In this document: positions 28,280 to 45,752 of the stretch, piece after piece | How the letters are laid out: each line of letters opens with the position of its first letter | Position numbering within the stretch: position 1 is the first letter of the stretch | Assembly (NCBI GenBank): GCA_964618895.1 | Contig: CAZUDO010000056.1 | Span: forward strand, 104,744-168,743 | Direction of reading: 5' to 3' | Length of the DNA: 64,000 bases | Source: an uncultured Candidatus Binatia bacterium | Lineage (GTDB): Bacteria > Desulfobacterota > Binatia > DP-6 | Notes under the pieces: model-generated | Told to the model about the DNA's origin: nothing | The model's input: only the letters and a program-made list of their open reading frames with translations | Databases searched by the model: none | Made by a program: the position numbers and the translations under genes

Positions 28280-28993
28280 ATGGCCGCCATGGTGCAACGG
28301 GTACGGACGGGACGCAAGCGCGTGCTGGCACGGGCCGTGCCCCGCACGCCCCGGGCGGAGGACGCGCCGCGCTCGCCCGGGCGGCCGGTCGGTGCCGATG
28401 GCGACCGCACGCGCGAGCGCATTCTCGAGAAGGCGATCGAGACGTTCGCCGACTTCGGCTTCGCCGGCGCATCGGTGCGCGACATCGCGCGCAAGGCGCG
28501 CATCCGGGTGTCGTCCCTGTACCACTACTTCCCCTCCAAGGCCGCCCTCTACCTCGCCGTTGAGGAGCGCATCGCGCAGCAGATCCGCGAGATCGCACTG
28601 TCGTCGGTCACGAAAGAGGCCGACCTGCGCGCGATGGTGCGCGACTCGGTCGGGCGCCTGTTCGATTTCTACCTCGAACGTCCGGCGTACGTGCGCCTCG
28701 GCTACCGCTTCCATCTGGACGGCGAACGGCGACCGGGCGGGTCGGAGCGCATCTTCGAGCGCTGGGTCGGCTTCATGGAAGCGCTCATGAAGCCGGCCGA
28801 AACGCAGGGCATCCTGAAACCGATCGACCCACCGCTCCTGATGGCTTCGGTCGAGGGGCTGCTCGCCTCGCACCTGACCAACGACGCCCTCTACCGCACC
28901 TTCTACGGCACCAGCCTCGACGACCCCGCCACCGCGGCGCGCGTGCGCGAGCACGTGATCCAGATGGTGCTGCGGGCGGTCGGCCTCGACTGA
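28280..28993 (+). CDS. TetR-family transcriptional regulator
   Basis: HTH FGFAGASVRDIARKARIRVSSLYHYFPSKAALY, about 237 aa; paralogous to the TetR at 45030. Confidence 0.85.
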   Translation: MAAMVQRVRTGRKRVLARAVPRTPRAEDAPRSPGRPVGADGDRTRERILEKAIETFADFGFAGASVRDIARKARIRVSSLYHYFPSKAALYLAVEERIAQQIREIALSSVTKEADLRAMVRDSVGRLFDFYLERPAYVRLGYRFHLDGERRPGGSERIFERWVGFMEALMKPAETQGILKPIDPPLLMASVEGLLASHLTNDALYRTFYGTSLDDPATAARVREHVIQMVLRAVGLD

Positions 28994-29149: not shown

Positions 29150-29602
29150 ATGCCGTCGAAAGACATGATTGGCCGGGTGCTGTCGACCGGCAGTGCCACC
29201 GTCACCGCCGAGAGCATCGCCGCGTTCGCGCGGGCGCTCGGTGATCCCGACCCGCTCTATCTCGACCCGCAGGCCGCACGCCGGGGGTTGTTCGGGTCCA
29301 TCGTCGCGCCGCCGACGTACCCGATCGCCTTCATGGTGCAGGCGATGGCGGGCGGGATGGACACCTTCCTCGAGCTTGGCCTCGACTTCATGACGCTCGT
29401 GCACGGCGAGCAGGAGTTCGAATACCGGCGCCCGATCCGTGCTGGCGAGACGTTGACGCTCACCGGCCGCATCGCCGACGTCTACGACAAGACGGGCGGC
29501 AGCGGCACGCTGGACTTCGTCGTGCTCGAGACCGAGGCGCGCGATCCGGAGGGCGAGGTGGTGTTCTTCTCGCGCAATACGCTCATCTCCCGGAGGACAT
29601 GA
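29150..29602 (+). CDS. MaoC-like hydratase, N-terminal-type hotdog subunit (ChsH1/HadA-like)
   Basis: A 150-aa hotdog fold (FARALGDPDPLYLDPQAAR...VHGEQEFEY) lacking the catalytic D/H motif, as in non-catalytic partner subunits; the stop overlaps the next gene's start. Confidence 0.8.
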   Translation: MPSKDMIGRVLSTGSATVTAESIAAFARALGDPDPLYLDPQAARRGLFGSIVAPPTYPIAFMVQAMAGGMDTFLELGLDFMTLVHGEQEFEYRRPIRAGETLTLTGRIADVYDKTGGSGTLDFVVLETEARDPEGEVVFFSRNTLISRRT

Positions 29603-30027
29603 TGCCCGCGCTCGATGCCAAGACGGTTGCGGTCGGCCAGGAGCTTCCGCCGCTGCAGAAGGGGCCGATCACCCGCGACGACCTGAAGGCCTACGCCGCG
29701 GCGTCGGGGGATCCCAATCCGATCCACATCGACGAGGAGTTCGCCAAGAACGCCGGCTACGCCGGCGTGTTCGCCCACGGCATGCTGTCGATGGGCTACC
29801 TGGGACAGTTCCTCGTCCAGGCCGCCAGCCTCGCGGGCGTGCGCCGCTTCCGCACCCGCTTCGCCAAGCTCACCTGGCCGGGCGACGTGATCACCTGTCG
29901 CGGGGCGGTCACGGCGATCCGGGACGAGGGCAGCGTGCGTCTCGTCGAGTGCGACATCTGGACCGAGAACCAGGACGGCGAGAAGAAGCTCACCGGGAGC
30001 GCGGTGCTCGCCCTGCCGCGCGGGTAG
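29599..30027 (+). CDS. MaoC-family (R)-specific enoyl-CoA hydratase, catalytic subunit
   Basis: SGDPNPIHIDEEFAKNAGYAGVFAHGML, the canonical MaoC dehydratase active-site motif; 142 aa. Confidence 0.85.
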   Translation: MMPALDAKTVAVGQELPPLQKGPITRDDLKAYAAASGDPNPIHIDEEFAKNAGYAGVFAHGMLSMGYLGQFLVQAASLAGVRRFRTRFAKLTWPGDVITCRGAVTAIRDEGSVRLVECDIWTENQDGEKKLTGSAVLALPRG

Positions 30028-30035
30028 TCGACCGC

Positions 30036-31196
30036 ATGGGTGACGCCACGCGGCTACGCGACCGCTACGCGATCGCGGGGATCGGCCTGTCGCGCTTCGG
30101 GAAGCTCCCCGGGACGAGCGCCATGGGCTTCACGCTCGAGGCCGCCAAGAACGCGATCGACGACTGCGGCATCTCGCGCGATGCGATCGACGGCGTGCTC
30201 GCGCTCATGCCGGCCGTCATGGGTGAGCAGCACGGGTGGGCGTCCCGGGTGGCGGCGTTCCTCGGCATCACGCCGTCCTACTGCGCCACCATGGACATGG
30301 GCGGCGCGACCGCCATCGGCATGATCCAGACCGCCGCGATGGCGATCGAGGCCGGCTTCTGCTCCGCGGTCCTGTGCGCGTTCGCGTGCCAGAACAACCC
30401 GCAAGGCGTGATCCCCATGCTCTTCGGGTCGCCGTACGCCATCCCGTACGGCGACGTGGGTGCGATCACCTTCATGGGGCACGTTGCCCGACGGCAGATG
30501 CACGAGTACGGGCTGACCAGCCGGCACTACGGCCATGTCGCGGTCACCTGGCGGGCGCACGCGGCCACCAATCCGCTCGCCCAGAAGCGCGAGCCGATCA
30601 CGCTGGACGACCACCAGAACTCCAAGATCATCAACGATCCCCTGCGGCTCCTCGACTGCTGCCTGGTCACCGACGGCGGCGGCGCGGTGATCGTGACCAG
30701 CGCCGGGCGGGCCCGCGACCTGCGCCAGCGGCCGGCCCTGATCGCGGGGCTCGGCCAGATTCATTCGTCGGAGATCATTCGTCCGTACGATACCGGGCGC
30801 GGCGGGGGACGCGAGGCTGCCGAGGCGGCGTACCGGATGGCGGGCTGCGCCGCCGGCGACATCGATGTGGTACAGCTCTACGACGGCTTCACGCCGCTGG
30901 TGGTGCACGAGCTGGTGGCGTACGGGTTCGCCACCTGGGACGACGTCGGGAGCCTGCTGGAGAGCGGGGCGTTACGGCACGGGGGGCGGCTGCCGAGCAA
31001 CACCGCCGGCGGCCTGCTCTCGGAAGGCCACCTCTCCGGGTTCGGTCACGTCGCGGAGGCCGTGCGCCAGGTGCGCGGCACGTCGCGTTGCCAGGTCCCG
31101 GGCGTGGCGCTGTCCATGGTCACCGGCTACGGAGGCGCTCCACACGAGTCGCCGCCGACGGTGGCGTACACGGTGGCGATCCTGCGGGGAGGGTGA
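30036..31196 (+). CDS. SCP-x/Ltp2-type thiolase-like protein (non-canonical thiolase/aldolase)
   Basis: A 386-aa thiolase fold (YAIAGIGLSRFGKLPG..., C-terminal TAGGLLSEGHLSGFGHVAEAVRQVRG) without the classic Cys-His-Cys thiolase triad context, as in Ltp2-type lipid-transfer proteins. Confidence 0.8.
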   Translation: MGDATRLRDRYAIAGIGLSRFGKLPGTSAMGFTLEAAKNAIDDCGISRDAIDGVLALMPAVMGEQHGWASRVAAFLGITPSYCATMDMGGATAIGMIQTAAMAIEAGFCSAVLCAFACQNNPQGVIPMLFGSPYAIPYGDVGAITFMGHVARRQMHEYGLTSRHYGHVAVTWRAHAATNPLAQKREPITLDDHQNSKIINDPLRLLDCCLVTDGGGAVIVTSAGRARDLRQRPALIAGLGQIHSSEIIRPYDTGRGGGREAAEAAYRMAGCAAGDIDVVQLYDGFTPLVVHELVAYGFATWDDVGSLLESGALRHGGRLPSNTAGGLLSEGHLSGFGHVAEAVRQVRGTSRCQVPGVALSMVTGYGGAPHESPPTVAYTVAILRGG

Positions 31197-31198
31197 GG

Positions 31199-32047
31199 AT
31201 GATGGTGACGACACGCGACCTCGACGTCGACGGCATCCGGCTGCACGTGGCGGAGGCAGGGGAAGGCCCGGCACTGGTGCTCCTCCACGGCCTGTCGGCC
31301 ACGCACGCCAACTGGGAGCACACCATTCCGGCGTTCGCCGACCGCTGGCGCGTGATCGCGCCGGACCTGCCCGGGCACGGCCGGTCGGCCAAGCCGGATG
31401 CGCCGTACAGCATCGACTTCTATGCCGGCGTGATCCGGAGCCTCGGGCGCGCCCTCGGCGTGCACGAGGCGGTGGTGGTCGGGAACTCGCTCGGGGGGCA
31501 GATCGCGATCGAGCTGGCGCTGTCCTACCCGACGTGGACGCGCGCCCTGGTGCTCGCCGCGCCGGCGGGAAGCTTCGGGCCGCTGCGTGTCCTCGGCCCG
31601 GTGCTGGGGGTGGTCACGCCGCCGGCGGTGCTCCGCTTCAGTCTGCCGCGGACGCTCGAACGCTGCTTCTACGACCACGCGCATCCGGCGCTCGACATGC
31701 GCCGGCGTATTCTGGCCGAACGGCTCGCCGCGGCGGACTTCCCCGACTTCGCCCGCGCGGTGTCGCGGTCGATCACAGGCGCGCTGCGCGGGAGCGGTCA
31801 GCCCCTGGAGCGTCTGACGCAGCCGACGCTCCTGGTCTGGGGTCGCGACGATCGCACGCTGCCGCTCTGGAACAGCCGATGGTTCCTCCGCGCCGTTCCG
31901 CACGCCCGCTTCGTGGCGCTGGAGCGCTGCGGGCACCTGCCGATGCTCGAACACGCGAGTCACTTCAATCGCCTGATGGCGGAGTTCCTGTGCGCCGTGG
32001 CGGCGGCCCCCCTGCCGGGGGCACGGCGCGCCAGCGGGGACACCTGA
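31199..32047 (+). CDS. Alpha/beta-fold hydrolase
   Basis: Nucleophile elbow GNSLGG, the HGxP-type motif LLHGLSATHANW, and C-terminal catalytic His in ERCGHLPMLE. Confidence 0.85.
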   Translation: MMVTTRDLDVDGIRLHVAEAGEGPALVLLHGLSATHANWEHTIPAFADRWRVIAPDLPGHGRSAKPDAPYSIDFYAGVIRSLGRALGVHEAVVVGNSLGGQIAIELALSYPTWTRALVLAAPAGSFGPLRVLGPVLGVVTPPAVLRFSLPRTLERCFYDHAHPALDMRRRILAERLAAADFPDFARAVSRSITGALRGSGQPLERLTQPTLLVWGRDDRTLPLWNSRWFLRAVPHARFVALERCGHLPMLEHASHFNRLMAEFLCAVAAAPLPGARRASGDT

Positions 32048-32457
32048 TGTTCGTCATCGAGAAGCCGATGCCCGCCGTCACCGAGGACGGCGCGCCGTAC
32101 TGGGAGGGCTGCCGCCAGGGCGTGCTGCGCGCGCAGCGCTGCACGGCGTGCCGGCACGTACGCTGGCCGCCGAGCGTGCTGTGCCCGAAGTGTCTGGCCG
32201 ACGGCACCGAGTGGATCGCGCTGTCGGGCCGCGGGGCCATCTATTCGTTCATCGTCGTACACCGGCCGCAACATCCGGCGTTCTTCGCCGACGCGCCCTA
32301 CAACGTCGCCATCGTCGAGCTGGCCGAGGGCATCCGGCTGCACGCCAGCATCGTCGACTGTCCGAACGAGGCCCTCCAGGTCGGGATGCCGGTCGAGGTC
32401 GTCTTCGACAAGGTGAACGACGAGGTGACGCTGCCTCGCTTCCGGCCCCGGCGGTAG
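32047..32457 (+). CDS. DUF35 protein (Zn-ribbon plus OB-fold; thiolase/aldolase partner subunit)
   Basis: CTACRHVRWPPSVLCPKCL rubredoxin-like C4 ribbon followed by an OB-fold (GRGAIYSFIVVH...); 136 aa; its ATG overlaps the hydrolase stop. Confidence 0.8.
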   Translation: MFVIEKPMPAVTEDGAPYWEGCRQGVLRAQRCTACRHVRWPPSVLCPKCLADGTEWIALSGRGAIYSFIVVHRPQHPAFFADAPYNVAIVELAEGIRLHASIVDCPNEALQVGMPVEVVFDKVNDEVTLPRFRPRR

Positions 32458-32474
32458 AAAGCGCACGTCGGCCC

Positions 32475-34775
32475 GTGTCGCGCCGCCCGGTCCTCGCCAT
32501 CTTCACCCTCTCGGGGGCGGCGGGGCTCGTCTATCAGGTGATCTGGGCGCGCCAGCTCGGCCTCGTCTTCGGCAACACCACCGCGTCGGTCACCATCGTC
32601 CTGGCGGCCTTCATGGCAGGGCTCGCGCTCGGGGCCGAGTGGGCGGGACGGGTGCTCGTCCGGCGGGCGAACCCGCTCCGGGTGTACGCCGTCCTCGAGG
32701 CGGCCATCGGCCTGTACGCCCTGGCCTTCGGCCCGCTGGTGAGCGGCCTCGAGACGCTCTACCCGCATCTCCTGAGCGACACCGCCTCGCCCGTCGTGCT
32801 GACGCTGGTGCGCTCCGTGGTCGCCTTCGGACTCGTGCTCCTGCCGACCACCTGCATGGGCGCCACCCTGCCGCTGACGACCGAGTATCTGCACCGGCTC
32901 GCGCTTGCCCATACCGACTGGAACGCCGGACGACTCTACGCCGCCAACACCCTCGGGTCGGCGCTCGGGTCGGTGGCCAGCGGGTTCGTGCTGATCGAGC
33001 TGGTGGGGATCGCCAACACGACGCGGATTGCTGCCGGCTTCAACGTGGTCGTGGGACTGCTCGGCTGGTGGCTCGCGCGCGGCCTCGCGCCGGCGAGCAC
33101 CCCGGCGACGCCCGCCGCCCCGGCGGCCGGCCAGCGGACTCTGCTCCTCCTGTTCGCGATCACAGGGGCGCTCGCGCTCGCCGGGGAGGTGCTGTGGACG
33201 CGCGCACTCACGCTGCTGCTCGGGAGCTCGACGTACGCCTTCAGCGGCATCCTGGTCGTGTACCTGGTCGGCATCGCATTCGGGAGCTGGGTTGCGGCCG
33301 GGATGGTTCGCCGGCTCGCCGCGCCCGAGCGATTCATCCCGCTCGCGATCCTGGGGGCCGGTGCGTGGCATGCCTTCGCCGTGACGCTGTTCGCCCCCCT
33401 GCACGCCCTGGTGCTCGGCCTGCTGGCGGCGACGCTGCAACCGATGTCGCCGGCCCAGTTCTACGCCCGTGCCGTTGCCACCCTGGTCGCCGTGCTCGGG
33501 GTGATGGTGCCGCCGGCGGCGCTGAGCGGGGCGCTGTTCCCGCTCGTCACCCGACTGCTCGAGGGCGACGCGGGCGATCGCGGCGCGCCCATCGCGCGCG
33601 CCTACACCTGGAACACGGTGGGCGCGATCGTCGGCTCGCTGGTCGGGGGCTTCGCCATCGCGCCGTTCTTCGTGCACTTCCATGCCATCGACGTGCTCGC
33701 GCTCTGCTTCCTCGGGGCCGCGCTCTGCGCCCTCGGGGTGATCGGCTGGCGAGCCTTCCCGATCGTGACCGGCGTGACGGTCGTGGGGGCGCTGGCGGTG
33801 ACGGCCCTCTCGGTGCAGCGGCTGCAGCGCCCGGACGCGTTCGTCACCCTCTACCGCCAGCGGCGACCCGCCTACGAGGTGCGCAGCCACGAGCCGGGCC
33901 TGCAGGGCATCACGACGGTGGCGTGGGACCGGGGCAAGCCCGAGCAGTCCGCCCAGCTGCTGGTGAACGGCGTCGGCATGACGGTGAAGGCGTTCGCCAC
34001 CAAGGCAATGGCGCACCTCCCCATCATCGCCCACGGCGCGGCCGAGGACGTGCTCGTGATCTGCTTCGGGATGGGGACGACGTTCCGCTCGGCGCTCACC
34101 CACGGCGGGCGTGTCGACGTGGTGGAGCTCACCCCCGGGGTATTCGGCGCCTTCGATGCGTTCTACGCCGATGCGGCCGAGGTCCGCCAGAACCCGCGCG
34201 GCCGCATGATCGTGAACGACGGGCGCAATTTCCTGCTCCTCACCGACAAACGCTACGACGTGATCACGCTCGATCCTCCGCCGCCCATCGATGCCGCCGG
34301 CGTGAGTACCCTGTATACGCGCGAGTTCCTGGAGCTCATGCGCGCCCACCTCGAGCCGGGGGGCATCGTCGCGCACTGGCTGCCGCCGCTCGGGCGGGGC
34401 GGGGGGCTGTCGGACATCGGCGTGCTCGACATGCTGGCGGCAACGTTCCTGGACGTGTTCCCGCATGTCCGGGTGCTGGTGAGTCAGCCGTTCATGAACC
34501 GATCGGGGTTCCATCTCCTCGGGTCGGACGCGCCGATCGCGCTCGATCCCGAGCGCTTGACGCGTGCCCTCGAGAATCCCGCCGTCAAGCGCGACATGAT
34601 GGAGTTCGGATGGGACCCGCTGGTGCCCGAGCGCTTCTTCTTCGAGGTCAACCTCCACCGTGACCTGGCGGCCAAGAAGACCCTGCTCACGGACGATCGC
34701 CCGCTCCTCGAGTTCAACCTGATCCGCAACCTGCGTCTGGGGCTCGCGCCCGCCATGATCCGCGTCGCGCCGTGA
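32475..34775 (+). CDS. Fused polytopic membrane (MFS-like) / spermidine-synthase-like aminopropyltransferase protein
   Basis: N-terminal half with about 12 transmembrane segments; C-terminal PABS-like domain (VLVICFGMGTTF...VVELTPGV...VNDGRNFL...YDVITLDPPPP); GTG start chosen; about 766 aa. Confidence 0.75.
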   Translation: MSRRPVLAIFTLSGAAGLVYQVIWARQLGLVFGNTTASVTIVLAAFMAGLALGAEWAGRVLVRRANPLRVYAVLEAAIGLYALAFGPLVSGLETLYPHLLSDTASPVVLTLVRSVVAFGLVLLPTTCMGATLPLTTEYLHRLALAHTDWNAGRLYAANTLGSALGSVASGFVLIELVGIANTTRIAAGFNVVVGLLGWWLARGLAPASTPATPAAPAAGQRTLLLLFAITGALALAGEVLWTRALTLLLGSSTYAFSGILVVYLVGIAFGSWVAAGMVRRLAAPERFIPLAILGAGAWHAFAVTLFAPLHALVLGLLAATLQPMSPAQFYARAVATLVAVLGVMVPPAALSGALFPLVTRLLEGDAGDRGAPIARAYTWNTVGAIVGSLVGGFAIAPFFVHFHAIDVLALCFLGAALCALGVIGWRAFPIVTGVTVVGALAVTALSVQRLQRPDAFVTLYRQRRPAYEVRSHEPGLQGITTVAWDRGKPEQSAQLLVNGVGMTVKAFATKAMAHLPIIAHGAAEDVLVICFGMGTTFRSALTHGGRVDVVELTPGVFGAFDAFYADAAEVRQNPRGRMIVNDGRNFLLLTDKRYDVITLDPPPPIDAAGVSTLYTREFLELMRAHLEPGGIVAHWLPPLGRGGGLSDIGVLDMLAATFLDVFPHVRVLVSQPFMNRSGFHLLGSDAPIALDPERLTRALENPAVKRDMMEFGWDPLVPERFFFEVNLHRDLAAKKTLLTDDRPLLEFNLIRNLRLGLAPAMIRVAP

Positions 34776-34822
34776 CCGCCGGACCCTTGTCACTGCCCGA
34801 CCTTTCGGTGTAGCCACCCGCC

Positions 34823-36622
34823 GTGCAGAGCGCCTCGCGATCGAAGCGCGTCCGGCGGGCCACGCGCCTGGACCCCATCGTCACCGAGATCATTCTCGGC
34901 GCGTTCGAGACCATCTGCTACGAGATGGCGACGCACGTGAGCCTCACGGCCACGACGCCCATCCTGAACCAGTCGAACGAGCGCAACGCCACCATCCTGG
35001 ACGGCACCGGGCGGCTGGCTGCGCTGTCGGTCGGCATTCCGCAGTTCATGCTGTCGTCGACCCTGCCGGTGCGGTTCGCGGTCGACTTCTTCGGGCCGGA
35101 CGGCCTCTTCGACGGCGACGTGTTGCTCGCCAACGACCCGTACCACGGCGGCGGGCACCTGCCGGACTACAACGTGTTCGCGCCCGTCTTCCACGACGGC
35201 GCGTGCGTCCTCATCGCGTCCATCCAGTGCCACCACGCCGACACGGGGGGCGGCGCACCGGGGGGCTACAATGTGAACGCCCTCGACATCTGGGCCGAGG
35301 GCGTGCGCTTCCCCGCGGTCAAGATCTACGAGCGGGGCGTGCTGCGACGCGACGTCGAGTACATGATCGCGGCCAACAACCGTACCCCCACGTTCCTGGG
35401 CGATCTGCGCGCGCAGGTGGGGGCGGCCCAGCTGGGCGTGCAGCGCCTGACAGACATCCTGGCGCGCTTCGGGACCGACACCGTCGCTGGGGCCGTGCAG
35501 AGCATCATCGCCTACGCCAAGCGCCGCTTCCGCGACGAGGTGGCGCGCTGGCCGGATGGCGTCTACGAATCCGACACCTACGTCGACCACGACCCGCACG
35601 GCACGCCGGACATCCACGTCCACTGCAAAGTGACGGTGCGGGGGAGCGCGCTCACGCTCGACTTCACCGGCTCCGACGACCGCCCCGACATCCAGGCGTA
35701 CTCCACCTTCGGCAACACGCGCGGCTACGTGGTGGCGCAGCTGGCCTGCATGATGGACCCGAGCATCCCGAAAAACGAGGGCTTCTTCGACTCGATCGAC
35801 TTGATCGTGCCGAAGGGCTGCTGCCTCAACCCGCCCGACGGCCGCTCGGTGGCGGCGGGCACGCATCATCCCGGCACCGAGGTCGGCGAGGCGGTCGCCA
35901 AGGCGCTCGAACGGGTGGTGCCCGAGCGCAGCTGCCCGCAGGTCTACAAGATGGGCATGCCGACGGTCATCTTCGGTACCAACCCGCGCACCGGGAAGCT
36001 GTTCATCGACCACTCGGTCGACACCTTCGCGGCCTACTGCGGGGCGGTGAAGGGCCAGGACGGGTGGGGTGGCATGAACGTCTCGTTCGGCAACCTGATC
36101 CGCGCCACCGCCGAGATCAACGAGTCGATCTTTCCGGTCCGGCACCTGGCACGCGACTACGAGACCGACAGCGGCGGCGCCGGCGCCAACCGCGGCAACT
36201 GCGGCAGCCTCTACCGCAAGCAGATGCTGGTGCGGTCGACCATCTACACCTACGTGGTCGGCAAGCGGTACCCCATGCCAGGGATCGCCGGCGGTCACCC
36301 CGGCTCCGCCAACCGCCTCCTCGTCCGCGCCGGCGGCGCGCACGCCTTCGAGGTCGGCGATAAGGCCCAATACATCGAGCACGCCGCCGGCGAGTCCTAC
36401 GAGTACCACTACGGCGGCGGCGGCGGCTGGGGCGACCCCCTTGCCCGTCCCCCCGCGCGCGTCCTCGACGACGTCCTCGACGAGTACATCTCCATCGAAT
36501 CCGCCCGCCGCGACTACGGCGTCGTCCTGACCGGTACCCTCGAAGACCTCACCCTCGCCCTCGACGAACCAGCCACCACCCGCCTCCGCGCCGAGATGCA
36601 GGCCCACCGGGAGCGCGCGTGA
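34823..36622 (+). CDS. hyuB: Hydantoinase B / 5-oxoprolinase B / acetone-carboxylase alpha-like subunit
   Basis: DPIVTEIILGAFETICYEMATHV N-terminus and conserved HyuB blocks (NDPYHGGGHLPD, GDKAQYIEHAAGESYEYHYGGGGGWGDP); 599 aa. Confidence 0.85.
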   Translation: MQSASRSKRVRRATRLDPIVTEIILGAFETICYEMATHVSLTATTPILNQSNERNATILDGTGRLAALSVGIPQFMLSSTLPVRFAVDFFGPDGLFDGDVLLANDPYHGGGHLPDYNVFAPVFHDGACVLIASIQCHHADTGGGAPGGYNVNALDIWAEGVRFPAVKIYERGVLRRDVEYMIAANNRTPTFLGDLRAQVGAAQLGVQRLTDILARFGTDTVAGAVQSIIAYAKRRFRDEVARWPDGVYESDTYVDHDPHGTPDIHVHCKVTVRGSALTLDFTGSDDRPDIQAYSTFGNTRGYVVAQLACMMDPSIPKNEGFFDSIDLIVPKGCCLNPPDGRSVAAGTHHPGTEVGEAVAKALERVVPERSCPQVYKMGMPTVIFGTNPRTGKLFIDHSVDTFAAYCGAVKGQDGWGGMNVSFGNLIRATAEINESIFPVRHLARDYETDSGGAGANRGNCGSLYRKQMLVRSTIYTYVVGKRYPMPGIAGGHPGSANRLLVRAGGAHAFEVGDKAQYIEHAAGESYEYHYGGGGGWGDPLARPPARVLDDVLDEYISIESARRDYGVVLTGTLEDLTLALDEPATTRLRAEMQAHRERA

Positions 36623-36638
36623 TCCGTGCCGCTGCATG

Positions 36639-36765
36639 GCGGTCGGAGGGCGAGGGGCCGGGGTCGGAGCGCCTTGACGAGGCGAGCACGCGTGCTCACC
36701 CTGAGCGGCCCGTTCGGCTCGCCGAGGAGCGAAGCGGAGACCCCGGCCCCTCGCCCTCCGACCGC
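36639..36765. repeat. 28-bp perfect inverted repeat forming a long hairpin (about 71-nt loop with a nested palindrome)
   Basis: ggcggtcggagggcgaggggccggggtc (36639-36666) is the exact reverse complement of gaccccggcccctcgccctccgaccgcc (36738-36765). The loop contains gagcacgcgtgctc (7+7 palindrome) and a ttgacg motif. It lies between the hyuB stop and the yjbQ start. Confidence 0.65.
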
Positions 36766-36796
36766 CGACACGACGCGGGGCACGTGTAGGCGACCC

Positions 36797-37207
36797 ATGC
36801 GCGCCCACACCGAGTATCTGTGGTTCACGACCGGTGCCCGCCGCGAGCTGGTGAACATCACGGAGCGCCTCACCGCCATCGTCGAGAAGGCCCGCGTCGC
36901 CGAGGGCCTGTGCCTGGTGTCCGCCATGCACATCACGGCCGCGATCTGGGTGAACGACGAGGAGCCCGGCCTGAAGCAAGATCTCCTGGCGTGGCTCGAG
37001 CGCCTCGCTCCCGCCGGCGACTACCAGCACCACCAGACGGGCGAGGACAACGCCGACGCGCATCTGAAGCGCACGCTCATCCACCATCAGGTGATCCTGC
37101 CGGTGACGAAGGGCGCGCTCGACCTCGGGCCCTGGGAGCAGGTCTTCTATGCCGAGTTCGACGGGCAGCGGAAGAAACGCGTGGTCGTCAAAATCCTGGG
37201 GGAGTGA
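36797..37207 (+). CDS. yjbQ: YjbQ/UPF0047-family protein (secondary thiamine-phosphate synthase-like)
   Basis: 136 aa; [34 protein letters not shown]...[20 protein letters not shown] matches UPF0047; ATG 36797 preferred over an in-frame low-complexity extension that runs through the hairpin. Confidence 0.8.
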
Positions 37208-37211
37208 ACGC

Positions 37212-39278
37212 GTGCGCACGGGCTATCGCATCGGTATCGACGTCGGGGGTACGTTCACGGACCTGGTACTGGTCGCCCCGGACGGCCGCCTGGTCATCGA
37301 CAAGCACCTGACCACGCCTGCCGACCAGTCTGCCGGCGTGCTCGGCGGCATCGGGCAGCTCGCCGCGCGCGAGGGGAAGACGCCGGACGCCCTCCTCGCC
37401 GCCACCACGCTCATCGTGCACGGCACCACCACCGCCGACAACACGATGATCGAGATGTCGGGGGCCACCACCGGGCTGATCACGTCCGACGGCCATCGCG
37501 ACGAGATCGAGATCCGCCGCGGCTTCAAGGAGAACATCTGGGACCCGGCGCAGCCGCCCCCGCCGGCGATCTGTCCGCGCCGCCGCCGCTACGGGGTGCC
37601 GGAGCGGCTCGACTTCGAGGGCAACGTCATTACCCCGCTCGACGAGGAGGCCGTCCGTCGCGCGTGCCGGCGGATGAAGCTGCAGGGCGTCGATTCGCTC
37701 GCGATCGTGTTCCTGTTCTCGTTCGTGGACTCGGCCCACGAGCGGCGCGCGCGAGAGATCGCTCGCGAAGAGCTGCCGGGGGTGATGCTGTCGCTGTCCC
37801 ACGAGGTGATGCCGTCGGCACCGGAGTTCGAGCGTACGTCGACCACGTTGGTGAACGCGTACGTGGGACCCAGGATCGAGCGCTATCTCGCGTGCCTCGA
37901 CGAGCGGCTGCGCGGCGCGGGGTTCCGGGGCGAGCTGCTCATCATGCAATCGAACGGCGGCGTCATGCCGGGCGGCTACGTGGCGCAGAAGGCGGTGGCG
38001 GTGATGGGTTCGGGCCCAGCCGGTGGGGTGATGGGGGCGACGGCGGTCGCCGGCGCGGTCAAGATCACCGACTTCATCTCCGTCGACATGGGCGGGACCA
38101 GCTACGACGTGTGCCTGGTGCGCGGCGGGACCCCGGAGGTGAAGACGGGCTGGAACTGGCACCATCGCTACCTGATCGGGCTGCCGATGGTCGAGGTGCA
38201 GTCGGTGGGTGCCGGCGGCGGCTCGATCGCGCGCGTGGAGTCGGGAGCGCTCAAGGTGGGGCCGCAGAGCGCGGGCGCGCAACCCGGGCCGGTGTGTTAC
38301 GGGCGCGGCGGTGTGGAGCCGACGGTCACCGATGCCAACGTGACCCTCGGCTATCTCAATCCCGCCAGCTTCTGCGGCGGCACGATGCAGCTCGACATCG
38401 AGGGCGCGCACGCGGCCATCGCGACCCGGGTGGCGAAGCCGCTCGGACTGTCCGTGATCGAGGCGGCCGAGGGCATCTTCCGGTTGGTGAACGCCAACAT
38501 GGCGAACGCCGTCCGGCGCATCTCCGCCGGGCGCGGCATCGACCCGCGCCCGCTCACGCTGGTCGTCTTCGGCGGCAACGGGCCGGTGCACGCCGGCATG
38601 CAGGCCGCCGAGCTCGGCATCCGCCGCATCCTCGTCCCCAAGCTGTCGCCGGCGTTCTCGGCGCTCGGCCTCCTGCTCACCGACCACGTTGTCGACGAGA
38701 TGCGCTCGTACATCAGCCCGGTCTCCCAGATCGACCTGAGGCGCGTGAATGCCCTCCTGGCCGACATGGAGACGGCGGCCACGGCGGCGCTCGGGAGCGG
38801 GAACGGCAAGCGCCGGGTGCGCCTCGAGCGCATGGCCGCCCTCTGCTACCCGGGCCAGACCTTCGACATGCCGGTGCCGCTCCCGGCGCGCGGCGGGCCG
38901 GTGACCGCGCGCGGGCTGGCCGACACCGTCGAGCGTTTCCACCGCCTGCATGAAGAACTGCACACGTATGCCAGCCGCGACCAGGAGCCGATCCTGCGCG
39001 GCCTGCGTCTGAAGGCCGTGGCGGTGGAAGTGAAACCCGCGTTGCCACGCATCGCCCGCAAGGGTCGGGGGAATGCCCGCGTCGGAGCCCGCAAGGCCTA
39101 TTTCAACGGCCGGGTCGTTGCCACGCCCGTGTACGATGGGCCGCAGCTCACACCGGGCCGGACCATCCTCGGCCCCGCCATCGTCGAGGAGCCGTTCACG
39201 AGCATCGTGGTGTACCCGGGGCAGCGTGCCAGCGTCGACCCGTTCGGCAACTACGCGATCACCGTCGGGCGCGGGTAG
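37212..39278 (+). CDS. hyuA: Hydantoinase A / oxoprolinase A / acetone-carboxylase beta-like subunit
   Basis: IGIDVGGTFTDLVL N-terminal ASKHA motif; HGTTTADN; SVDMGGTSYDV second ATPase motif; GTG start 4 bp after the yjbQ stop; 688 aa. Confidence 0.85.
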   Translation: MRTGYRIGIDVGGTFTDLVLVAPDGRLVIDKHLTTPADQSAGVLGGIGQLAAREGKTPDALLAATTLIVHGTTTADNTMIEMSGATTGLITSDGHRDEIEIRRGFKENIWDPAQPPPPAICPRRRRYGVPERLDFEGNVITPLDEEAVRRACRRMKLQGVDSLAIVFLFSFVDSAHERRAREIAREELPGVMLSLSHEVMPSAPEFERTSTTLVNAYVGPRIERYLACLDERLRGAGFRGELLIMQSNGGVMPGGYVAQKAVAVMGSGPAGGVMGATAVAGAVKITDFISVDMGGTSYDVCLVRGGTPEVKTGWNWHHRYLIGLPMVEVQSVGAGGGSIARVESGALKVGPQSAGAQPGPVCYGRGGVEPTVTDANVTLGYLNPASFCGGTMQLDIEGAHAAIATRVAKPLGLSVIEAAEGIFRLVNANMANAVRRISAGRGIDPRPLTLVVFGGNGPVHAGMQAAELGIRRILVPKLSPAFSALGLLLTDHVVDEMRSYISPVSQIDLRRVNALLADMETAATAALGSGNGKRRVRLERMAALCYPGQTFDMPVPLPARGGPVTARGLADTVERFHRLHEELHTYASRDQEPILRGLRLKAVAVEVKPALPRIARKGRGNARVGARKAYFNGRVVATPVYDGPQLTPGRTILGPAIVEEPFTSIVVYPGQRASVDPFGNYAITVGRG

Positions 39279-39291
39279 CCCGCCCGCGTTC

Positions 39292-40101
39292 TCACTTCCC
39301 CGTCCACACCGGCCGCCGTTTCTCGACGAACGCCCGTTGCGCCTCGCGCGCGTCGTCGGTGCGGCGGAGGGGGCGGCCGAGCTCTTCCTGGCGGCGGTAG
39401 GCGTCGGGGAGCGGCAGCGGGAGCAGCTCGCGGACGCCGCGGCGGGTCTCGCGCACGGCGAGCGGGGCGTTGGCGGCGATGGCGTCGGCGGCGGCCAGCG
39501 CGGTGGCGAGGAGACGGTCCGGCGGGACGACGGCGTTCACCAGCCCGATCTCGAGCGCCCGCTGGGCGTCGATCGGGCGCGCTGTGAGGAGCAGGTCGTG
39601 GGCGTGCACCCAGCCGATCTGGCGCGGCAGGAGGACGGTCGCATTGCCGGTCGGGTAGAGGCCGAGGGCAACCTCTTCGAATGCGAAGGTGGCATGCGGG
39701 ACGGCGTAGCGGATCTCGGCGGCCAGCAGGAGGTCGAAGCCGGCTGCGCGTGCGTGGCCGTTGACGGCGCACACCAGCGGCGTGTTCAGGTCGAAGCCAG
39801 CGAGGAGTGCGGTGGCGACGCTGCGCAGCCCGGCGAACGTCTCCTCGTCGACACGCTCGCCGCGGGCGAAGCGCTGCGAGGCGGGAATAGTACTCTTCAT
39901 GTCCATCCCGCCGCAGAACACCCGCGCCCCCGCGCCGGTGAGGACGGCGCAGCGGATGTCATCGTCGGCGGCGATGCGCCGCCAGGCGTCGGCGAGCGCG
40001 CACAGGGTGGGGGGATCCAGCGCGTTCGCCTGCGCGGGCCGGTCGATCGTGACCACCGCGACGTGGGGGTGGTCGCCCGGAAGCTCGAGCCGTGCCGCCA
40101 T
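39292..40101 (-). CDS. Enoyl-CoA hydratase/isomerase (crotonase) family protein
   Basis: ALDPPTLCALADAWRRIAADDDIRCAVLTGAGARVFCGGMDM and ...FEEVALGLYPTGNATVLLPRQIG, the oxyanion-hole helices. Confidence 0.85.
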   Translation of the reverse strand: MAARLELPGDHPHVAVVTIDRPAQANALDPPTLCALADAWRRIAADDDIRCAVLTGAGARVFCGGMDMKSTIPASQRFARGERVDEETFAGLRSVATALLAGFDLNTPLVCAVNGHARAAGFDLLLAAEIRYAVPHATFAFEEVALGLYPTGNATVLLPRQIGWVHAHDLLLTARPIDAQRALEIGLVNAVVPPDRLLATALAAADAIAANAPLAVRETRRGVRELLPLPLPDAYRRQEELGRPLRRTDDAREAQRAFVEKRRPVWTGK

Positions 40102-40196
40102 GGCCGCGACGAGGAAAGCATGCGCGCGCGGCCGCGGTCAACGTGTTGGTCCGGGCCTTGACAGCCCGGACACCGGGGGCGCAGTGTCGCCCCACC

Positions 40197-40694
40197 ATGA
40201 GCAAGCCGAGCGACGACAGCGTCACGACGTTCGAGAGCCTCGGCGACACGCTCCGCGCGGCGCGCAAGCTCGCCACCGACCTCGCCGACGAGCCGCTGTT
40301 CGCGCGCTTAGTGAAGGTGTTCCAGGCCATGCCGGCGGAGGATCGCGCCACCGTGATCGACGCCATGGAGCGGGACGTGTACGCGCGCCTGCTCAGCCGC
40401 GCGACCGAGAAGGTCACCGGGCAGGCGGCGCGTCCCAATCCCCATGCCCGGCTCTACGTGCGCTCCCACGGCCCGGAGATGCGGCGCGAGGACCTGGAGC
40501 AGACGGAAATGACGCAGGCCACGCTGCGTGCCATCCGCGTGATGCCGTTCCTGATGATCCCGGAGATCTACGCCGAGTGGCAGCGCGCGACGCATGACGC
40601 CGTGGCACGTACCACGCCCGAGGAGCGCGCCCTGGTGCAGAAACTCGTCGAGGACGTGCTGGGGATGCTGGCGGAGGCGTCGACCCCGGCGTAG
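40197..40694 (+). CDS. Hypothetical protein
   Basis: A 165-aa ORF (MSKPSDDSVTTFESLGDTLRAARKLATDL...) with no recognisable domain; the ATG follows the upstream divergent region. Confidence 0.5.
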   Translation: MSKPSDDSVTTFESLGDTLRAARKLATDLADEPLFARLVKVFQAMPAEDRATVIDAMERDVYARLLSRATEKVTGQAARPNPHARLYVRSHGPEMRREDLEQTEMTQATLRAIRVMPFLMIPEIYAEWQRATHDAVARTTPEERALVQKLVEDVLGMLAEASTPA

Positions 40695-43787: not shown

Positions 43788-44078
43788 TCAGTTCCAGCTG
43801 CCGGCCGACGCGTAGGTGAGGACGGCACTACACTGCGGGCACTTGATACGCTCCGCCAGGCCGTCGAGGAGCTTGAGCAGCCCGTTGCAGTGGGTGCAGC
43901 GGCGGTCGCGCCGATCGACCCGCTTGTCGGACAGGTCGATGACCGAGATCTCCTTGCATGCCTCGCACAGGGCGAGGCCGCCCCAGTAGCTCGCGCGGCC
44001 GGCCTTGCCCCAGCCGACCTGCAGCTTACCGCTCACAAAGGCGCAAGTCGGACAGCGGTATTCGACGACGGATCCCAT
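43788..44078 (-). CDS. Small double zinc-ribbon protein (4x CxxC)
   Basis: 96 aa with CPTC, CEAC, CTHC and CPQC arranged as two ribbon pairs; no other domain. Confidence 0.55.
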   Translation of the reverse strand: MGSVVEYRCPTCAFVSGKLQVGWGKAGRASYWGGLALCEACKEISVIDLSDKRVDRRDRRCTHCNGLLKLLDGLAERIKCPQCSAVLTYASAGSWN

Positions 44079-44185
44079 GGTGTATGCGTGAACGCCAACT
44101 GAATCGCTCAGTGGCGCACCGCTGTCAACCCTTCACGGCGGCCTCTGGCGCGCCGCGGGGCGGGTCTGGTACATCGGGCAGGGCC

Positions 44186-44965
44186 ATGGATTCGGCGGCG
44201 ACGGTCGATCTCGGGTCGCAGCATCTGCACGGCACGCGGGCCGATGGTGTCCTGCGCGTCGTCATCGACCGGCCCGCGCGCAAGAACGCGCTCACGATCG
44301 AGATGTACCACGGCCTCAAGAAGGCCGCGGTGCTCGCCGGACGCGACGCGACGGTCGACGTGCTGGTGGTCACGGCGGTCGGCGATACGTTCTGTGTCGG
44401 CGGCGAGATGGGGGGCAAGCACGAAGGCGGTGCTCCGATCGACCGCGAGACCGACGGCATCGACCTGCTGCCGTTCGTCCAGTTCGAACGCTGCCCCAAG
44501 ATCGTCGTGCTCGGCATCAACGGCATGTGCCAGGGCGGGGGCCTCAACCTGACGCTCATGTCCGACATCGCGATCGCCTCCGAGCGTGCCGTGTTCCGCG
44601 CCCCCGAGCTGCTGCGCGGCGTGGCCGACTGCTTCCTCGGCGCGCGGCTGGCCAGCCGCGTGGGGATCGCGCGCGCCAAATATCTGCTGTTCACTGCCCA
44701 GCAGCTGACGGCGGCCGAGGCGCTCGCCATGGGTCTCGTGGCCCGCGTCGTTCCGCACGACGGCCTCGAGGCCGCCGTCACCGAGACCATCGGCTGGATC
44801 CGGCAGACCGGCCCCGCGGCCCGGACCGCGCTCAAGCGCGACCTCAATCGGCACCTGCCGCCCATCGACGTGCCCATGTTCGTCGACTCGCTGGCGTCGG
44901 ACGAGGTGCGCGAGGGGTTCGCGGCCTTCGTCGAGAAGCGCCCGCCGGGCTGGGTGCGCAAATGA
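44186..44965 (+). CDS. Enoyl-CoA hydratase/isomerase (crotonase) family protein
   Basis: VIDRPARKNALTIEMYHGL...VGDTFCVGGEMGG...LGINGMCQGGGLNLTLMSDIAIASERAVF, the canonical crotonase fold motifs; start at the internal ATG with a better context. Confidence 0.85.
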   Translation: MDSAATVDLGSQHLHGTRADGVLRVVIDRPARKNALTIEMYHGLKKAAVLAGRDATVDVLVVTAVGDTFCVGGEMGGKHEGGAPIDRETDGIDLLPFVQFERCPKIVVLGINGMCQGGGLNLTLMSDIAIASERAVFRAPELLRGVADCFLGARLASRVGIARAKYLLFTAQQLTAAEALAMGLVARVVPHDGLEAAVTETIGWIRQTGPAARTALKRDLNRHLPPIDVPMFVDSLASDEVREGFAAFVEKRPPGWVRK

Positions 44966-45029: not shown

Positions 45030-45752
45030 GTGCCGGTCGTCGCCGCCAGCCGACGGCCGCGCGAGGCGAGCGCCACGGCGCCACCCACGCGCGAGCTGAT
45101 CCTCGACACCGCCGAGCGGTTGTTCTCCGCCCGTGGCGTGGACGGGGTGGCGGTGCGCGACCTCGCCCGCGAGATGGGCATCACGGCGTCGAGCCTCTAC
45201 AACCATTTCCCCGGCAAGCAGGCGCTGTACGATGCCGTGCTCGAGCGCGGCCTCGGGCCGATCGTGAGCGTGGTGGCGGAAGCCTGGCACCCCGGGGTGG
45301 TGCGCCCGGAGCAGGTGCAGGCGACGCTCGACCGGCTGACCGAGCACCTGGCGCGTCATCCGCACCTGGCGCGCCTGCTGCAGCGGGCCCTGCTCGAAGA
45401 CGCGGGTGCCGTGCAGACGCTCCTCGACCGGTGGCTCAGCTCGCTCTATCGCGAGGGCATCGCCGTCGTGCGCCGGATGGCGCGCGACGCCGGCTGGGAG
45501 GAGGAGCAGGTGCCGCATCTGGGCATCGCCCTCTTCGGGATGATCTTCGCCTACTTCACCAACCCCGCCGCGCTCCGGCGGCTCACCGGCTGGCGCGACG
45601 AGCCCCTGTCGGCGCACGGCCTGCAGGTGCAGCAACGTTTCCTGGCCGAAGCAGTGCTGCGCCTGCTCGGTCCACGACCGCAGGGCGCGGCGGCCCGCGC
45701 CAAACCCCCCACGCCAACCGGCGCACGACGACGGAGGTCCCCCCATGGCTGA
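45030..45752 (+). CDS. TetR-family transcriptional regulator
   Basis: HTH RGVDGVAVRDLAREMGITASSLYNHFPGKQALY; paralogous to the TetR at 28280; 3' end overlaps the next gene. Confidence 0.85.
   Translation: MPVVAASRRPREASATAPPTRELILDTAERLFSARGVDGVAVRDLAREMGITASSLYNHFPGKQALYDAVLERGLGPIVSVVAEAWHPGVVRPEQVQATLDRLTEHLARHPHLARLLQRALLEDAGAVQTLLDRWLSSLYREGIAVVRRMARDAGWEEEQVPHLGIALFGMIFAYFTNPAALRRLTGWRDEPLSAHGLQVQQRFLAEAVLRLLGPRPQGAAARAKPPTPTGARRRRSPHG

Follow-up and report, generated by a model that had tools for sequence, protein, structure and literature searches.

Among the closest described relatives of the two-subunit HyuBA enzymes are the acetone (Acx) and acetophenone (Apc) carboxylases, in which the HyuA-like subunit performs the ATP-dependent activation and the HyuB-like subunit the metal-dependent chemistry, and caprolactamase (CapAB), whose genes were cloned in the order capB-capA with their native intergenic region (PMC8453981). 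For ATP-binding subunits with the ASKHA fold the motifs DxGGTxTD, DxGGT and GxxPGP have been defined; in CapB a vicinal disulfide, Cys410-Cys411, lines the substrate pocket, and the listed hydantoinase-like hydrolases include IaaC/IaaE, from anaerobic indoleacetate degradation in Aromatoleum aromaticum (PMC8453981). Aldolases of the Ltp2 type yield a ketone or an aldehyde together with an acyl-coenzyme A (acyl-CoA); the catalytic residues are Tyr294 (in the motif YDHF) and Tyr344 in Ltp2, and Tyr302 and Cys304 (YDCY) in Sal (PMC12329534). Here we analyzed a 64,000-nt stretch of DNA from an uncultured Candidatus Binatia bacterium (contig CAZUDO010000056.1, positions 104,744 to 168,743; the whole stretch is called the window in the following), in which hyuB, yjbQ and hyuA follow each other on the + strand behind genes for MaoC-like hydratases and an Ltp2-like enzyme.

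A preliminary description of the segment 32475-39278 had drawn attention to hyuB preceding hyuA, to a long hairpin and a yjbQ gene between the two, and to an adjacent membrane protein fused to a spermidine-synthase-like domain. Frame analysis, translations and Pfam placed all of these genes and the hairpin where they had been reported; the observation is confirmed, whereas its interpretation is only partly supported and fails for the most part. The locus probably encodes an uncharacterized enzyme of a known family and lies in a conserved operon with passenger genes at fixed junctions. The order of B before A, the fused membrane protein and the hairpin have ordinary explanations, and the arrangement itself is no discovery. 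What stands out is a strongly conserved HyuBA subfamily that is repeatedly tied to an Ltp2-like aldolase, a DUF35 protein and hydratases.

The hyuB-yjbQ-hyuA operon and its relatives

In the window, which has ~70% G+C, reading frames were picked by third-position GC (GC3) and translation. Scanning for HyuB relatives with one genome per species gave 548 genome matches, chiefly Binatia, Myxococcota and 'Deltaproteobacteria' metagenome-assembled genomes (MAGs). We compared 80 of these with 10-kb flanks and about 15 metagenome loci (designated by L numbers), in which homologs of the window genes were placed by tblastn. Three clades were delimited by HyuB identity to the window, not by a tree: clade A (at least 83%; Candidatus Binatia/Binatus and 'delta proteobacterium' MAGs), clade B (72-80%; mostly Binatia) and clade C (<72%; Myxococcota and others).

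Clade-A loci share one layout, namely an SDR gene on the opposite strand followed by genes for TetR, two MaoC proteins, a thiolase-like protein, an alpha/beta hydrolase and DUF35, and then hyuB, yjbQ and hyuA. From the SDR gene to hyuA, the window is colinear with this layout gene for gene in L010, L011, L012, L014 and L096, and ten consecutive window genes are colinear with Candidatus Binatia/Binatus MAGs at 57-86% amino-acid identity. The clade-B layout is (crotonase), thiolase-like, DUF35, hyuB, hyuA, lacking yjbQ. That of clade C is hyuB, hyuA, crotonase(s), thiolase-like and DUF35, then a double hot-dog gene; the Myxococcota loci (HyuB 67-71% identical) differ in arrangement from the window. 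By this comparison, a Binatia-type source is more likely than the Myxococcota considered in the preliminary description. The order hyuB-yjbQ-hyuA is the normal layout of a widespread, uncharacterized catabolic operon in Binatia-like soil bacteria.

Having B before A, initially regarded as unusual, turned out to be the norm for this HyuB branch, because 39 of 56 loci outside clade A have the two genes adjacent in this order, not one of ~95 loci in any clade has hyuA upstream of hyuB, and the genes of caprolactamase, the closest characterized homolog, are ordered alike. The count comprises 20/33 clade-B and 19/23 clade-C loci with enough sequence, in which hyuA lies directly 3′ of hyuB within 300 bp.

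HyuB itself has more than 2,000 homologs, the best 120 of which are all at least 73% identical to it; an alignment of 22 homologs has a mean column identity of 74%. Across phyla it is 67-88% identical, which is unusually conserved for a catabolic enzyme. Several MAGs hold two HyuB loci (e.g. L020/L037, L035/L038 and L062/L076), and hyuB occurs without hyuA inside 10 kb in four of 11 clade-A, 11 of 33 clade-B and four of 23 clade-C loci, among them L002-L005, L013, L017, L019, L035, L037, L078 and L087.

According to GC3 frame analysis and translations, ten + strand genes extend from 29150 to 39278 in the window with a widest spacer of 174 bp. The spacers flanking the gene for the fused membrane protein, hyuB, yjbQ and hyuA measure 17, 47, 174 and 4 bp, all on one strand. 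We consider it likely that the ten genes form a catabolic operon on one strand, typical of Binatia-like bacteria and preceded by a TetR gene, and that the segment from 32475 onward makes up its distal half.

Insertions recur in three slots of the related loci, DUF35|hyuB, hyuB|yjbQ and yjbQ|hyuA (L001, L011, L012, L014, L015, L086, L093 and L094). They hold otsA/otsB and genes for RidA, GNAT, cupin, GH92, GH38, PAS kinase, beta-lactamase and an AbiEii toxin, as well as NrfA/NrfH-like cytochromes, a radical-SAM gene and type I cas genes. The order and orientation of the anchor genes around the slots are kept throughout. In the genome analyzed here, the first slot would have taken up the gene for the fused membrane protein and the second a 129-nt palindrome. 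The locus is a clear example of an operon whose order is kept while unrelated genes enter fixed junctions.

HyuBA and the upstream hydratase/aldolase genes

The metal-binding subunit HyuB (34823-36622, + strand; 599 aa) matches PF02538 over its full length (423 bits). HyuA, the ATP-binding (ASKHA) subunit, is encoded on the same strand from a GTG at 37212 to 39278 and has all three Hydantoinase_A domains (PF05378, 154 bits; PF01968, 298; PF19278, 59). Its ATP motifs are DVGGTFTD (aa 10), DMGGTS (aa 292) and GAQPGP (aa 355). In HyuB, the metal tetrad E53/H112/D115/H138 aligns with D41/H99/D102/H124 of CapB and is invariant in 22 homologs. Since the ATP motifs are intact and the tetrad is invariant, HyuBA is very likely an active enzyme, as judged from these residues. 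The GTG start of hyuA lies 4 nt after the yjbQ stop codon TGA (ending at 37207), as described before, and a Shine-Dalgarno-like GGGGAG is found 7 nt upstream of it, inside the end of yjbQ. An alternative start at ATG 37149 was rejected; it would overlap yjbQ by 59 nt, and with GTG 37212 as the start, the alignments to Pfam and PDB entries set in at residues 4-6.

Among solved structures, HyuA scores best against CapA (6yra_A, 483 bits), followed by N-methylhydantoinase (410), the Apc gamma subunit (336) and the Acx beta subunit (277). For HyuB, N-methylhydantoinase (7hk5, 243 bits) and CapB (6yra_B, 231) come first, and the carboxylases score 119 (Apc) and 75 (Acx alpha). The pair matches no characterized equivalog in NCBIfam, in agreement with the preliminary description: scores against CapA and CapB (NF050156/NF050157) are 640 and 284 bits at a cut-off of 1000 each, and those against ApcD, ApcC and ApcA (NF042960/42975/42976) are 118, 358 and 220 bits at cut-offs of 1250-1500. 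The residues corresponding to the vicinal disulfide of CapB are Val420-Ser421.

The chemistry that we favor, if tentatively, would be the ATP-dependent ring opening of a cyclic amide, since the enzyme falls in the lactam-hydrolyzing branch with caprolactamase and N-methylhydantoinase. The subunit composition and the amidase, RidA and GNAT neighbors in some relatives also back this choice. By homology with CapAB, HyuA would phosphorylate or otherwise activate the substrate at the expense of ATP, probably together with bicarbonate as in caprolactamase, and the activated intermediate would pass to the HyuB metal site E53/H112/D115/H138, where the bond would be broken or made. Such a ring opening would stand within a pathway whose carbon skeleton is otherwise handled as CoA thioesters by the upstream hydratase/aldolase genes. 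Amidase-signature genes (PF01425) were observed upstream of hyuB-hyuA in two clade-B loci (L099, 5933-7339; L100, 8408-9814). The one in L100 is directly adjacent and on the same strand, which hints that some paralogs act in amide/nitrogen metabolism.

The conserved partners of HyuBA lie upstream of 32475, the point at which the preliminary description began: TetR, the MaoC pair, the Ltp2-like enzyme, the alpha/beta hydrolase and DUF35. The TetR-family regulator (28280-28993, + strand; PF00440, PF17938) is the first gene of the conserved block and has homologs at the same position in L010, L011, L012, L014, L015 and L096. A divergent SDR gene on the − strand is also located upstream of the array. 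Two overlapping + strand genes (29150-29602 and 29599-30027; PF13452, PF01575) encode a pair of MaoC-like hot-dog hydratases resembling ChsH1/ChsH2. The pair is 70-80% identical and colinear in L006, L010-L012, L014 and L015, and was called as a pair in L090 and L096.

The following + strand gene (30035-31196) encodes a protein of the SCP2-thiolase fold. Its open reading frame (ORF) is open from 29949, but the probable start is ATG 30035, giving 386 aa and matching the homologs. Ltp2 (6ok1_A) is the best solved relative at 201 bits; the Ltp-type models of NCBIfam are all missed at their cut-offs. At the position of the nucleophilic thiolase Cys (AACAS in an archaeal thiolase), the protein has a Gly (MGGAT). 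Of the catalytic motif, YDGF at aa 311 keeps the Tyr of YDHF in Ltp2 and YDCY in Sal, with a Gly at the third position that is neither His nor Cys, and the position of Ltp2 Tyr344 is occupied by His. These residues suggest that the protein is probably a retro-aldolase rather than a thiolase. The combination of YDGF and His differs from both Ltp2 (YDHF/Tyr) and Sal (YDCY/Gln), and homologs are present in L006, L010-L015, L090 and L096; the enzyme may represent a third active-site variant of this aldolase group.

Next in the array are an alpha/beta-fold hydrolase (31199-32047, + strand; PF00561, 113 bits) and a stand-alone DUF35 protein with a Zn-ribbon and an OB fold (32047-32457, + strand; PF12172, PF01796), the ATG of the latter overlapping the TGA of the former. 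The hydrolase is HsaD/PcaD/BphD-like and below all cut-offs; its best NCBIfam matches are HsaD (127 bits at a cut-off of 400) and PcaD, and it keeps its position across clade A at 57-68% identity. DUF35 has a C4 zinc finger of the pattern C-x2-C-x10-C-x2-C (CTACRHVRWPPSVLCPKC, aa 32-49), and its best solved relative is the DUF35 domain of ChsH2 (6ok1_B, 102 bits). In about 30 related loci, a DUF35 gene adjoins the thiolase-like gene. The accompanying hydratases vary: clade A has MaoC, and many loci of clades B and C have a crotonase or double hot-dog gene. Taken together, the MaoC pair, the Ltp2-like enzyme and DUF35 look like a hydratase and retro-aldolase module whose products would be a short acyl-CoA and a ketone or aldehyde. 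That this module is linked to hyuBA in all three clades and in two gene orders is the best indication that they share a pathway.

The main alternative, possible though doubtful, is that HyuBA carboxylates ketones at the expense of ATP, which the pathway logic favors. A branched or ring-attached hydroxyacyl-CoA would then be split by the MaoC pair and the Ltp2-like/DUF35 aldolase into an acyl-CoA and a ketone, which HyuBA would convert to a beta-keto acid for further CoA-dependent breakdown. The nearest solved relative of the thiolase-like and DUF35 proteins, the Ltp2-ChsH2(DUF35) aldolase, and the missing thiolase nucleophile are consistent with this, as is the pairing of both genes with hyuBA in 30 of the 74 loci with enough flank, spread over three clades and two arrangements. 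The superfamily of HyuBA includes the acetone and acetophenone carboxylases, and HyuB shares with the alpha subunit of acetone carboxylase a Glu at the first metal/gating position. However, HyuBA is much closer in sequence to the lactamases, and the length of HyuB (599 aa) is near that of CapB (581 aa) and not of Acx alpha (776 aa) or Apc delta (684 aa). Glu53 was rejected as a carboxylase marker; N-methylhydantoinase likewise has Glu there, so the residue does not discriminate. No small subunit of the gamma/epsilon type was found among the Pfam matches of the 20 neighboring genes scanned, and a divergent copy elsewhere in the genome is possible. The amidase genes near paralogous hyuBA (L099, L100), together with RidA and GNAT genes after hyuB in several relatives, hint at nitrogen chemistry as well.

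Carboxylation of isoprenoid methyl ketones has reportedly been proposed from metabolite work on Marinobacter, for which we found no paper. Our literature search likewise retrieved no paper on Binatia hydantoinases, on a hydantoinase combined with DUF35 and a thiolase or with a lipid transfer protein and MaoC, or on trimethylpentadecan-2-one carboxylation, and nothing relevant on acetone carboxylase with DUF35.

Beyond hyuA, a convergent gene on the − strand (39292-40101; PF00378, 161 bits) closes the + strand array. It encodes a crotonase-type, EchA19-like enoyl-CoA hydratase that remains below the EchA19 cut-off (NF051848; 239 bits at a cut-off of 400). In many loci of clades B and C, hyuBA has crotonase genes beside it. 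A 200-aa ORF at 40092-40694 has a coding-type GC3 of 0.91, no Pfam or NCBIfam match and no tblastn match in related loci. Further downstream lies a second CoA-ester module, consisting of a crotonase (43958-44965), a TetR gene (45030-45752) and a 372-aa double hot-dog protein (FAS1_DH_region; 45745-46863). Weak homologs of the latter (22-28%) were found just 3′ of hyuBA-thiolase-DUF35 in 16 of 28 clade-C loci (L059-L085).

The palindrome, YjbQ and the fused membrane protein

The spacer between hyuB and yjbQ is filled by a near-perfect palindrome of 129 nt (36638-36766; no strand assigned), which begins 15 nt past the hyuB stop and ends 30 nt ahead of the yjbQ start. Its arms are perfect over 28 nt (36638-36665 and 36739-36766). 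For the 178-nt spacer, the folding energy is -124 kcal/mol (z = -8.8), which none of 200 shuffles reached. The hairpin is thus as real as first described, but it is not conserved in relatives. No match to its sequence was found in about 88 related loci, and the 180 nt after hyuB held no comparable structure in 23 related loci (z from -1.5 to +2.1, compared with -7.2 for the window on the same measure). Because the same junction is only 0-4 bp long in compact relatives, the hairpin is a window-specific insertion and probably a lineage-specific passenger.

Other identities were considered for this element and rejected. Rfam returned only sub-threshold look-alikes of microRNA precursors on both strands. 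A dispersed repeat of the REP or MITE kind would have further copies; only the two arms themselves matched in the 64-kb window, none was found in the related loci, and the two-arm pattern had no match in metagenome contigs. A single-arm 22-mer gave one metagenome match, located within a coding region without a palindrome, which we take as chance. As an intrinsic terminator the hairpin lacks a T-tract, the stem being followed by GACACGACGCGG, and the terminator scan does not call it. Between 27.8 and 40.8 kb, the promoter/terminator scan gave no promoter-like site and terminator-like sites at chance level, which is uninformative at 70% GC.

A second intergenic palindrome is located at 1504-1792, with a near-perfect stem of ~105 bp (RNAfold, -274 kcal/mol over 1491-1810). 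Its sequence is unrelated to that of the 36638-36766 hairpin. The presence of two long palindromes within 64 kb points to a feature of the whole genome.

A regulatory RNA or DNA element at 36638-36766, acting as terminator, attenuator or mRNA-stabilizing/processing site and uncoupling the expression of hyuB from that of yjbQ-hyuA, would fit the extreme stability and the exact placement in the intergenic spacer, and the second palindrome suggests that the genome tolerates or uses such elements. We nevertheless regard such a role as somewhat unlikely: besides the missing T-tract and the negative terminator call, in none of the 23 related loci is the structure conserved, the spacer itself being missing from four of them, and it belongs to no Rfam family and has no further copy in the window or in metagenomes.

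Downstream of the palindromic insertion follows yjbQ (ATG 36797-37207, + strand), whose product is a full-length member of UPF0047 (PF01894, 128 bits at a cut-off of 27; TIGR00149, 116 at 67.75; PDB 2p6c, 188 bits over residues 1-136). YjbQ proteins are widespread and have, to our knowledge, no established physiological role; the papers retrieved on them give only promiscuous or 'secondary thiamine-phosphate synthase' roles. The yjbQ frame is open through the palindrome up to GTG 36626 with high GC3, and automatic annotation could add a spurious Arg/Gly/Pro-rich extension of 57 aa. We rejected 36626-37207 as an N-extended YjbQ; the extension is the palindrome, and the homologs and 2p6c start at ATG 36797.

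The position of yjbQ between hyuB and hyuA had been expected to fail in relatives if the arrangement was of no significance. In the closest clade it is kept: of the 19 distinct clade-A loci that continue downstream for 1 kb or more, 16 have a co-oriented yjbQ downstream of hyuB. In the wider family it is not: none of 64 clade-B and clade-C loci has a close yjbQ downstream of hyuB, and L055 has a 46%-identical copy 6.5 kb away. Clade-A YjbQ proteins are 76-85% identical to that of the window, and up to 90% in metagenomes. L096 and L097 have a compact triad in which yjbQ starts 4 bp past hyuB and overlaps hyuA; hyuB and yjbQ abut in L086 and L093, and the compact junctions of these four loci range from -1 to 4 bp. 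The remaining clade-A loci have hyuB-yjbQ gaps of 42 bp to 6.6 kb and yjbQ-hyuA gaps of 75 bp to >10 kb. The genes in these gaps are unrelated and on either strand, and also include polyketide-cyclase/BON and fatty-acid-hydroxylase genes. In L098, an 81%-identical YjbQ is encoded in a Pirin/beta-lactamase context with no hyuB within 3 kb upstream or 10 kb downstream. The locus pattern suggests a history in which yjbQ came between hyuB and hyuA in the clade-A ancestor as part of a compact, translationally coupled triad, and in which the three junctions would later have repeatedly taken up unrelated genes with order and orientation kept. One yjbQ insertion in the clade-A ancestor followed by vertical retention is the simplest history.

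Alternatively, YjbQ could be a genuine third component or accessory of clade-A HyuBA (a small subunit, a handler of metal or intermediates, or a proofreading enzyme), with the triad as a functional unit. Its retention on the same strand in 16/19 loci despite heavy surrounding rearrangement speaks for this, as do the junctions that overlap or measure 4 bp on both sides in L096 and L097 (on the hyuB side only in L086 and L093) and, in the window, the hyuA start 4 nt past the yjbQ stop with GGGGAG within the yjbQ end. The gene also stays near hyuB where hyuA is more than 10 kb away (L001, L087), and characterized carboxylase relatives use extra small subunits (PMC8453981). Yet yjbQ is absent from all 64 wider-family loci, in which hyuB and hyuA are directly adjacent and presumably active, and in most clade-A loci unrelated genes on either strand part it from hyuB or hyuA. 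Synteny is generally high in clade A (SDR, TetR and otsAB are kept), so that a passenger would persist too. With the copy outside any hyuB context in L098 and with no similarity to carboxylase gamma subunits among solved structures, we judge a functional partnership of this kind rather unlikely.

A bolder combination, which appears quite improbable, would make YjbQ a dedicated HyuBA accessory and the cluster an undescribed route, in which the ChsH-like hydratase and the Ltp2-like aldolase shorten a branched or cyclic acyl-CoA by a side chain, giving a ketone that HyuBA carboxylates with ATP. If true, it would supply an enzyme for a step that has reportedly been proposed from isoprenoid-ketone metabolite data.

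The fused protein upstream of hyuB is encoded on the + strand from a GTG at 32475 to 34775. The fusion over 766 aa was borne out, with about 12 hydrophobic segments (aa 6-445) and a spermidine-synthase-like domain (PF01564, aa 509-632), and the protein belongs to the 'fused MFS/spermidine synthase' family NF037959 (83.8 bits at a cut-off of 40). This family has no demonstrated function known to us. Its architecture comprises ~750-800 aa with about 12 TM segments and a PF01564 domain, as in the window protein; more than 1,500 homologs of the same length were detected in many phyla, and several are so named by NCBI. The proposal that it is an aminopropyltransferase did not hold: the SpeE equivalogs are missed by far (TIGR00417, 58 bits at a cut-off of 249.55; PRK00811, 66 at 260) and the signature residues are lacking. 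In SpeE, GGGDG is the motif for decarboxylated S-adenosylmethionine and the acidic D-x-x-D-P the putrescine/catalytic motif. Here GGGDG is replaced by CFGMG, EID by ELT, and SDCTDP of Escherichia coli by LDPPPP, with loss of the second Asp.

Nor is the gene part of a recurring gene set, as had been assumed; it occurs in none of ~100 related hyuB loci. By tblastn, no match was found at E <= 1e-3 in 85 related loci and none at E <= 1e-6 in 88, and no such gene was called in the loci added later. Its nearest homologs are 74% and then at most 60% identical, compared with 88-90% for those of HyuB and YjbQ. The DUF35|hyuB junction measures 50-200 bp in many relatives, and in others this slot holds otsA/otsB (L001, L012, L014, L015), two cytochrome c genes (L093), a radical-SAM gene (L094) or cas genes (L086). 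The gene is best read as a lineage-specific passenger in an operon junction and not as a pathway component. The initial proposal that HyuAB, YjbQ and a membrane-bound aminopropyltransferase form one novel pathway, to which the four genes, on one strand with short spacers (17, 47, 174 and 4 bp) and probably co-transcribed, lend some appeal, is very improbable given that the fused gene is missing from all related loci and its slot is filled by unrelated genes, that its homologs are so much more distant than those of its neighbors, and that it lacks GGGDG and the second Asp of D-x-x-D-P and scores far below the SpeE cut-offs.

Several points weigh against the overall picture of a ring-opening HyuBA in an operon with passengers. 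All equivalog cut-offs are missed, hence 'lactamase' denotes the nearest branch only, as far as sequence similarity goes. The window operon has no aminotransferase or other amine-handling gene, and an Ltp2-type aldolase would yield a ketone, which suits a carboxylase. Given the overlapping compact triads of four relatives, yjbQ may be functional and not a passenger, and the gene for the fused membrane protein is tightly packed (spacers of 17 and 47 bp) and probably co-transcribed, making a local physiological link possible. Finally, the compared loci are MAG contigs, their counts are not phylogenetically independent, and the clade limits come from HyuB identity.

Worth following are the clade-restricted association with yjbQ and the family-wide association of HyuBA with the Ltp2-like enzyme. 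Identifying the HyuBA substrate would show what a gene cluster common in abundant uncultured soil bacteria does, and it could also give UPF0047/YjbQ a testable partner.

Comparison with characterized systems

The protein upstream of hyuB is a regular member of NF037959, and nothing sets it apart. Acetone carboxylase AcxABC (5M45/5SVB) and acetophenone carboxylase Apc (5L9W) share the superfamily with HyuBA at weaker scores. Their HyuB-like subunit is about 100-180 aa longer than HyuB of the window. AcxABC consists of three subunits including a small Zn-binding gamma subunit and an alpha subunit of ~776 aa, a composition that HyuBA does not share according to the Pfam scans of its neighbors. 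IaaC/IaaE, which we liken to HyuBA by description only, reportedly acts in a pathway that otherwise proceeds on CoA thioesters, which would make it a precedent for HyuAB alongside enzymes of CoA esters; its cluster has a CoA ligase/transferase and a B12 mutase that were not seen in the window.

The upstream genes compare with ChsH1-ChsH2-Ltp2 (6OK1) and Shy-Sal (9MYR; PMC12329534), which likewise combine a MaoC pair, a thiolase fold and DUF35. In steroid ChsH2, DUF35 forms the C-terminus, whereas it is a separate gene in the window, and the motifs YDHF of Ltp2 and YDCY of Sal correspond to YDGF. No other steroid-degradation genes were identified in the window. We know of no association with HyuBA for the steroid side-chain hydratase/aldolase systems.

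N-methylhydantoinase (7HK5) is the top solved match for HyuB and the second for HyuA and also has Glu at the first metal position. It is, however, a single fused chain of 1288 aa with the A part N-terminal and the B part C-terminal, whereas the window has separate genes in the order B...A, and identity is low. CapAB of Pseudomonas jessenii (PDB 6YRA; PMC8453981) is likewise a two-subunit, ATP-dependent enzyme with genes in the order B-then-A and similar subunit sizes, and CapA matches HyuA over its full length. The two differ in the first metal ligand, which is Asp in CapB and Glu in HyuB, and in the yjbQ gene that separates the subunit genes in the window, unlike in CapAB. They differ also in context: CapAB belongs to an aminotransferase pathway, whereas HyuBA of the window is encoded among hydratase and aldolase genes for CoA esters.

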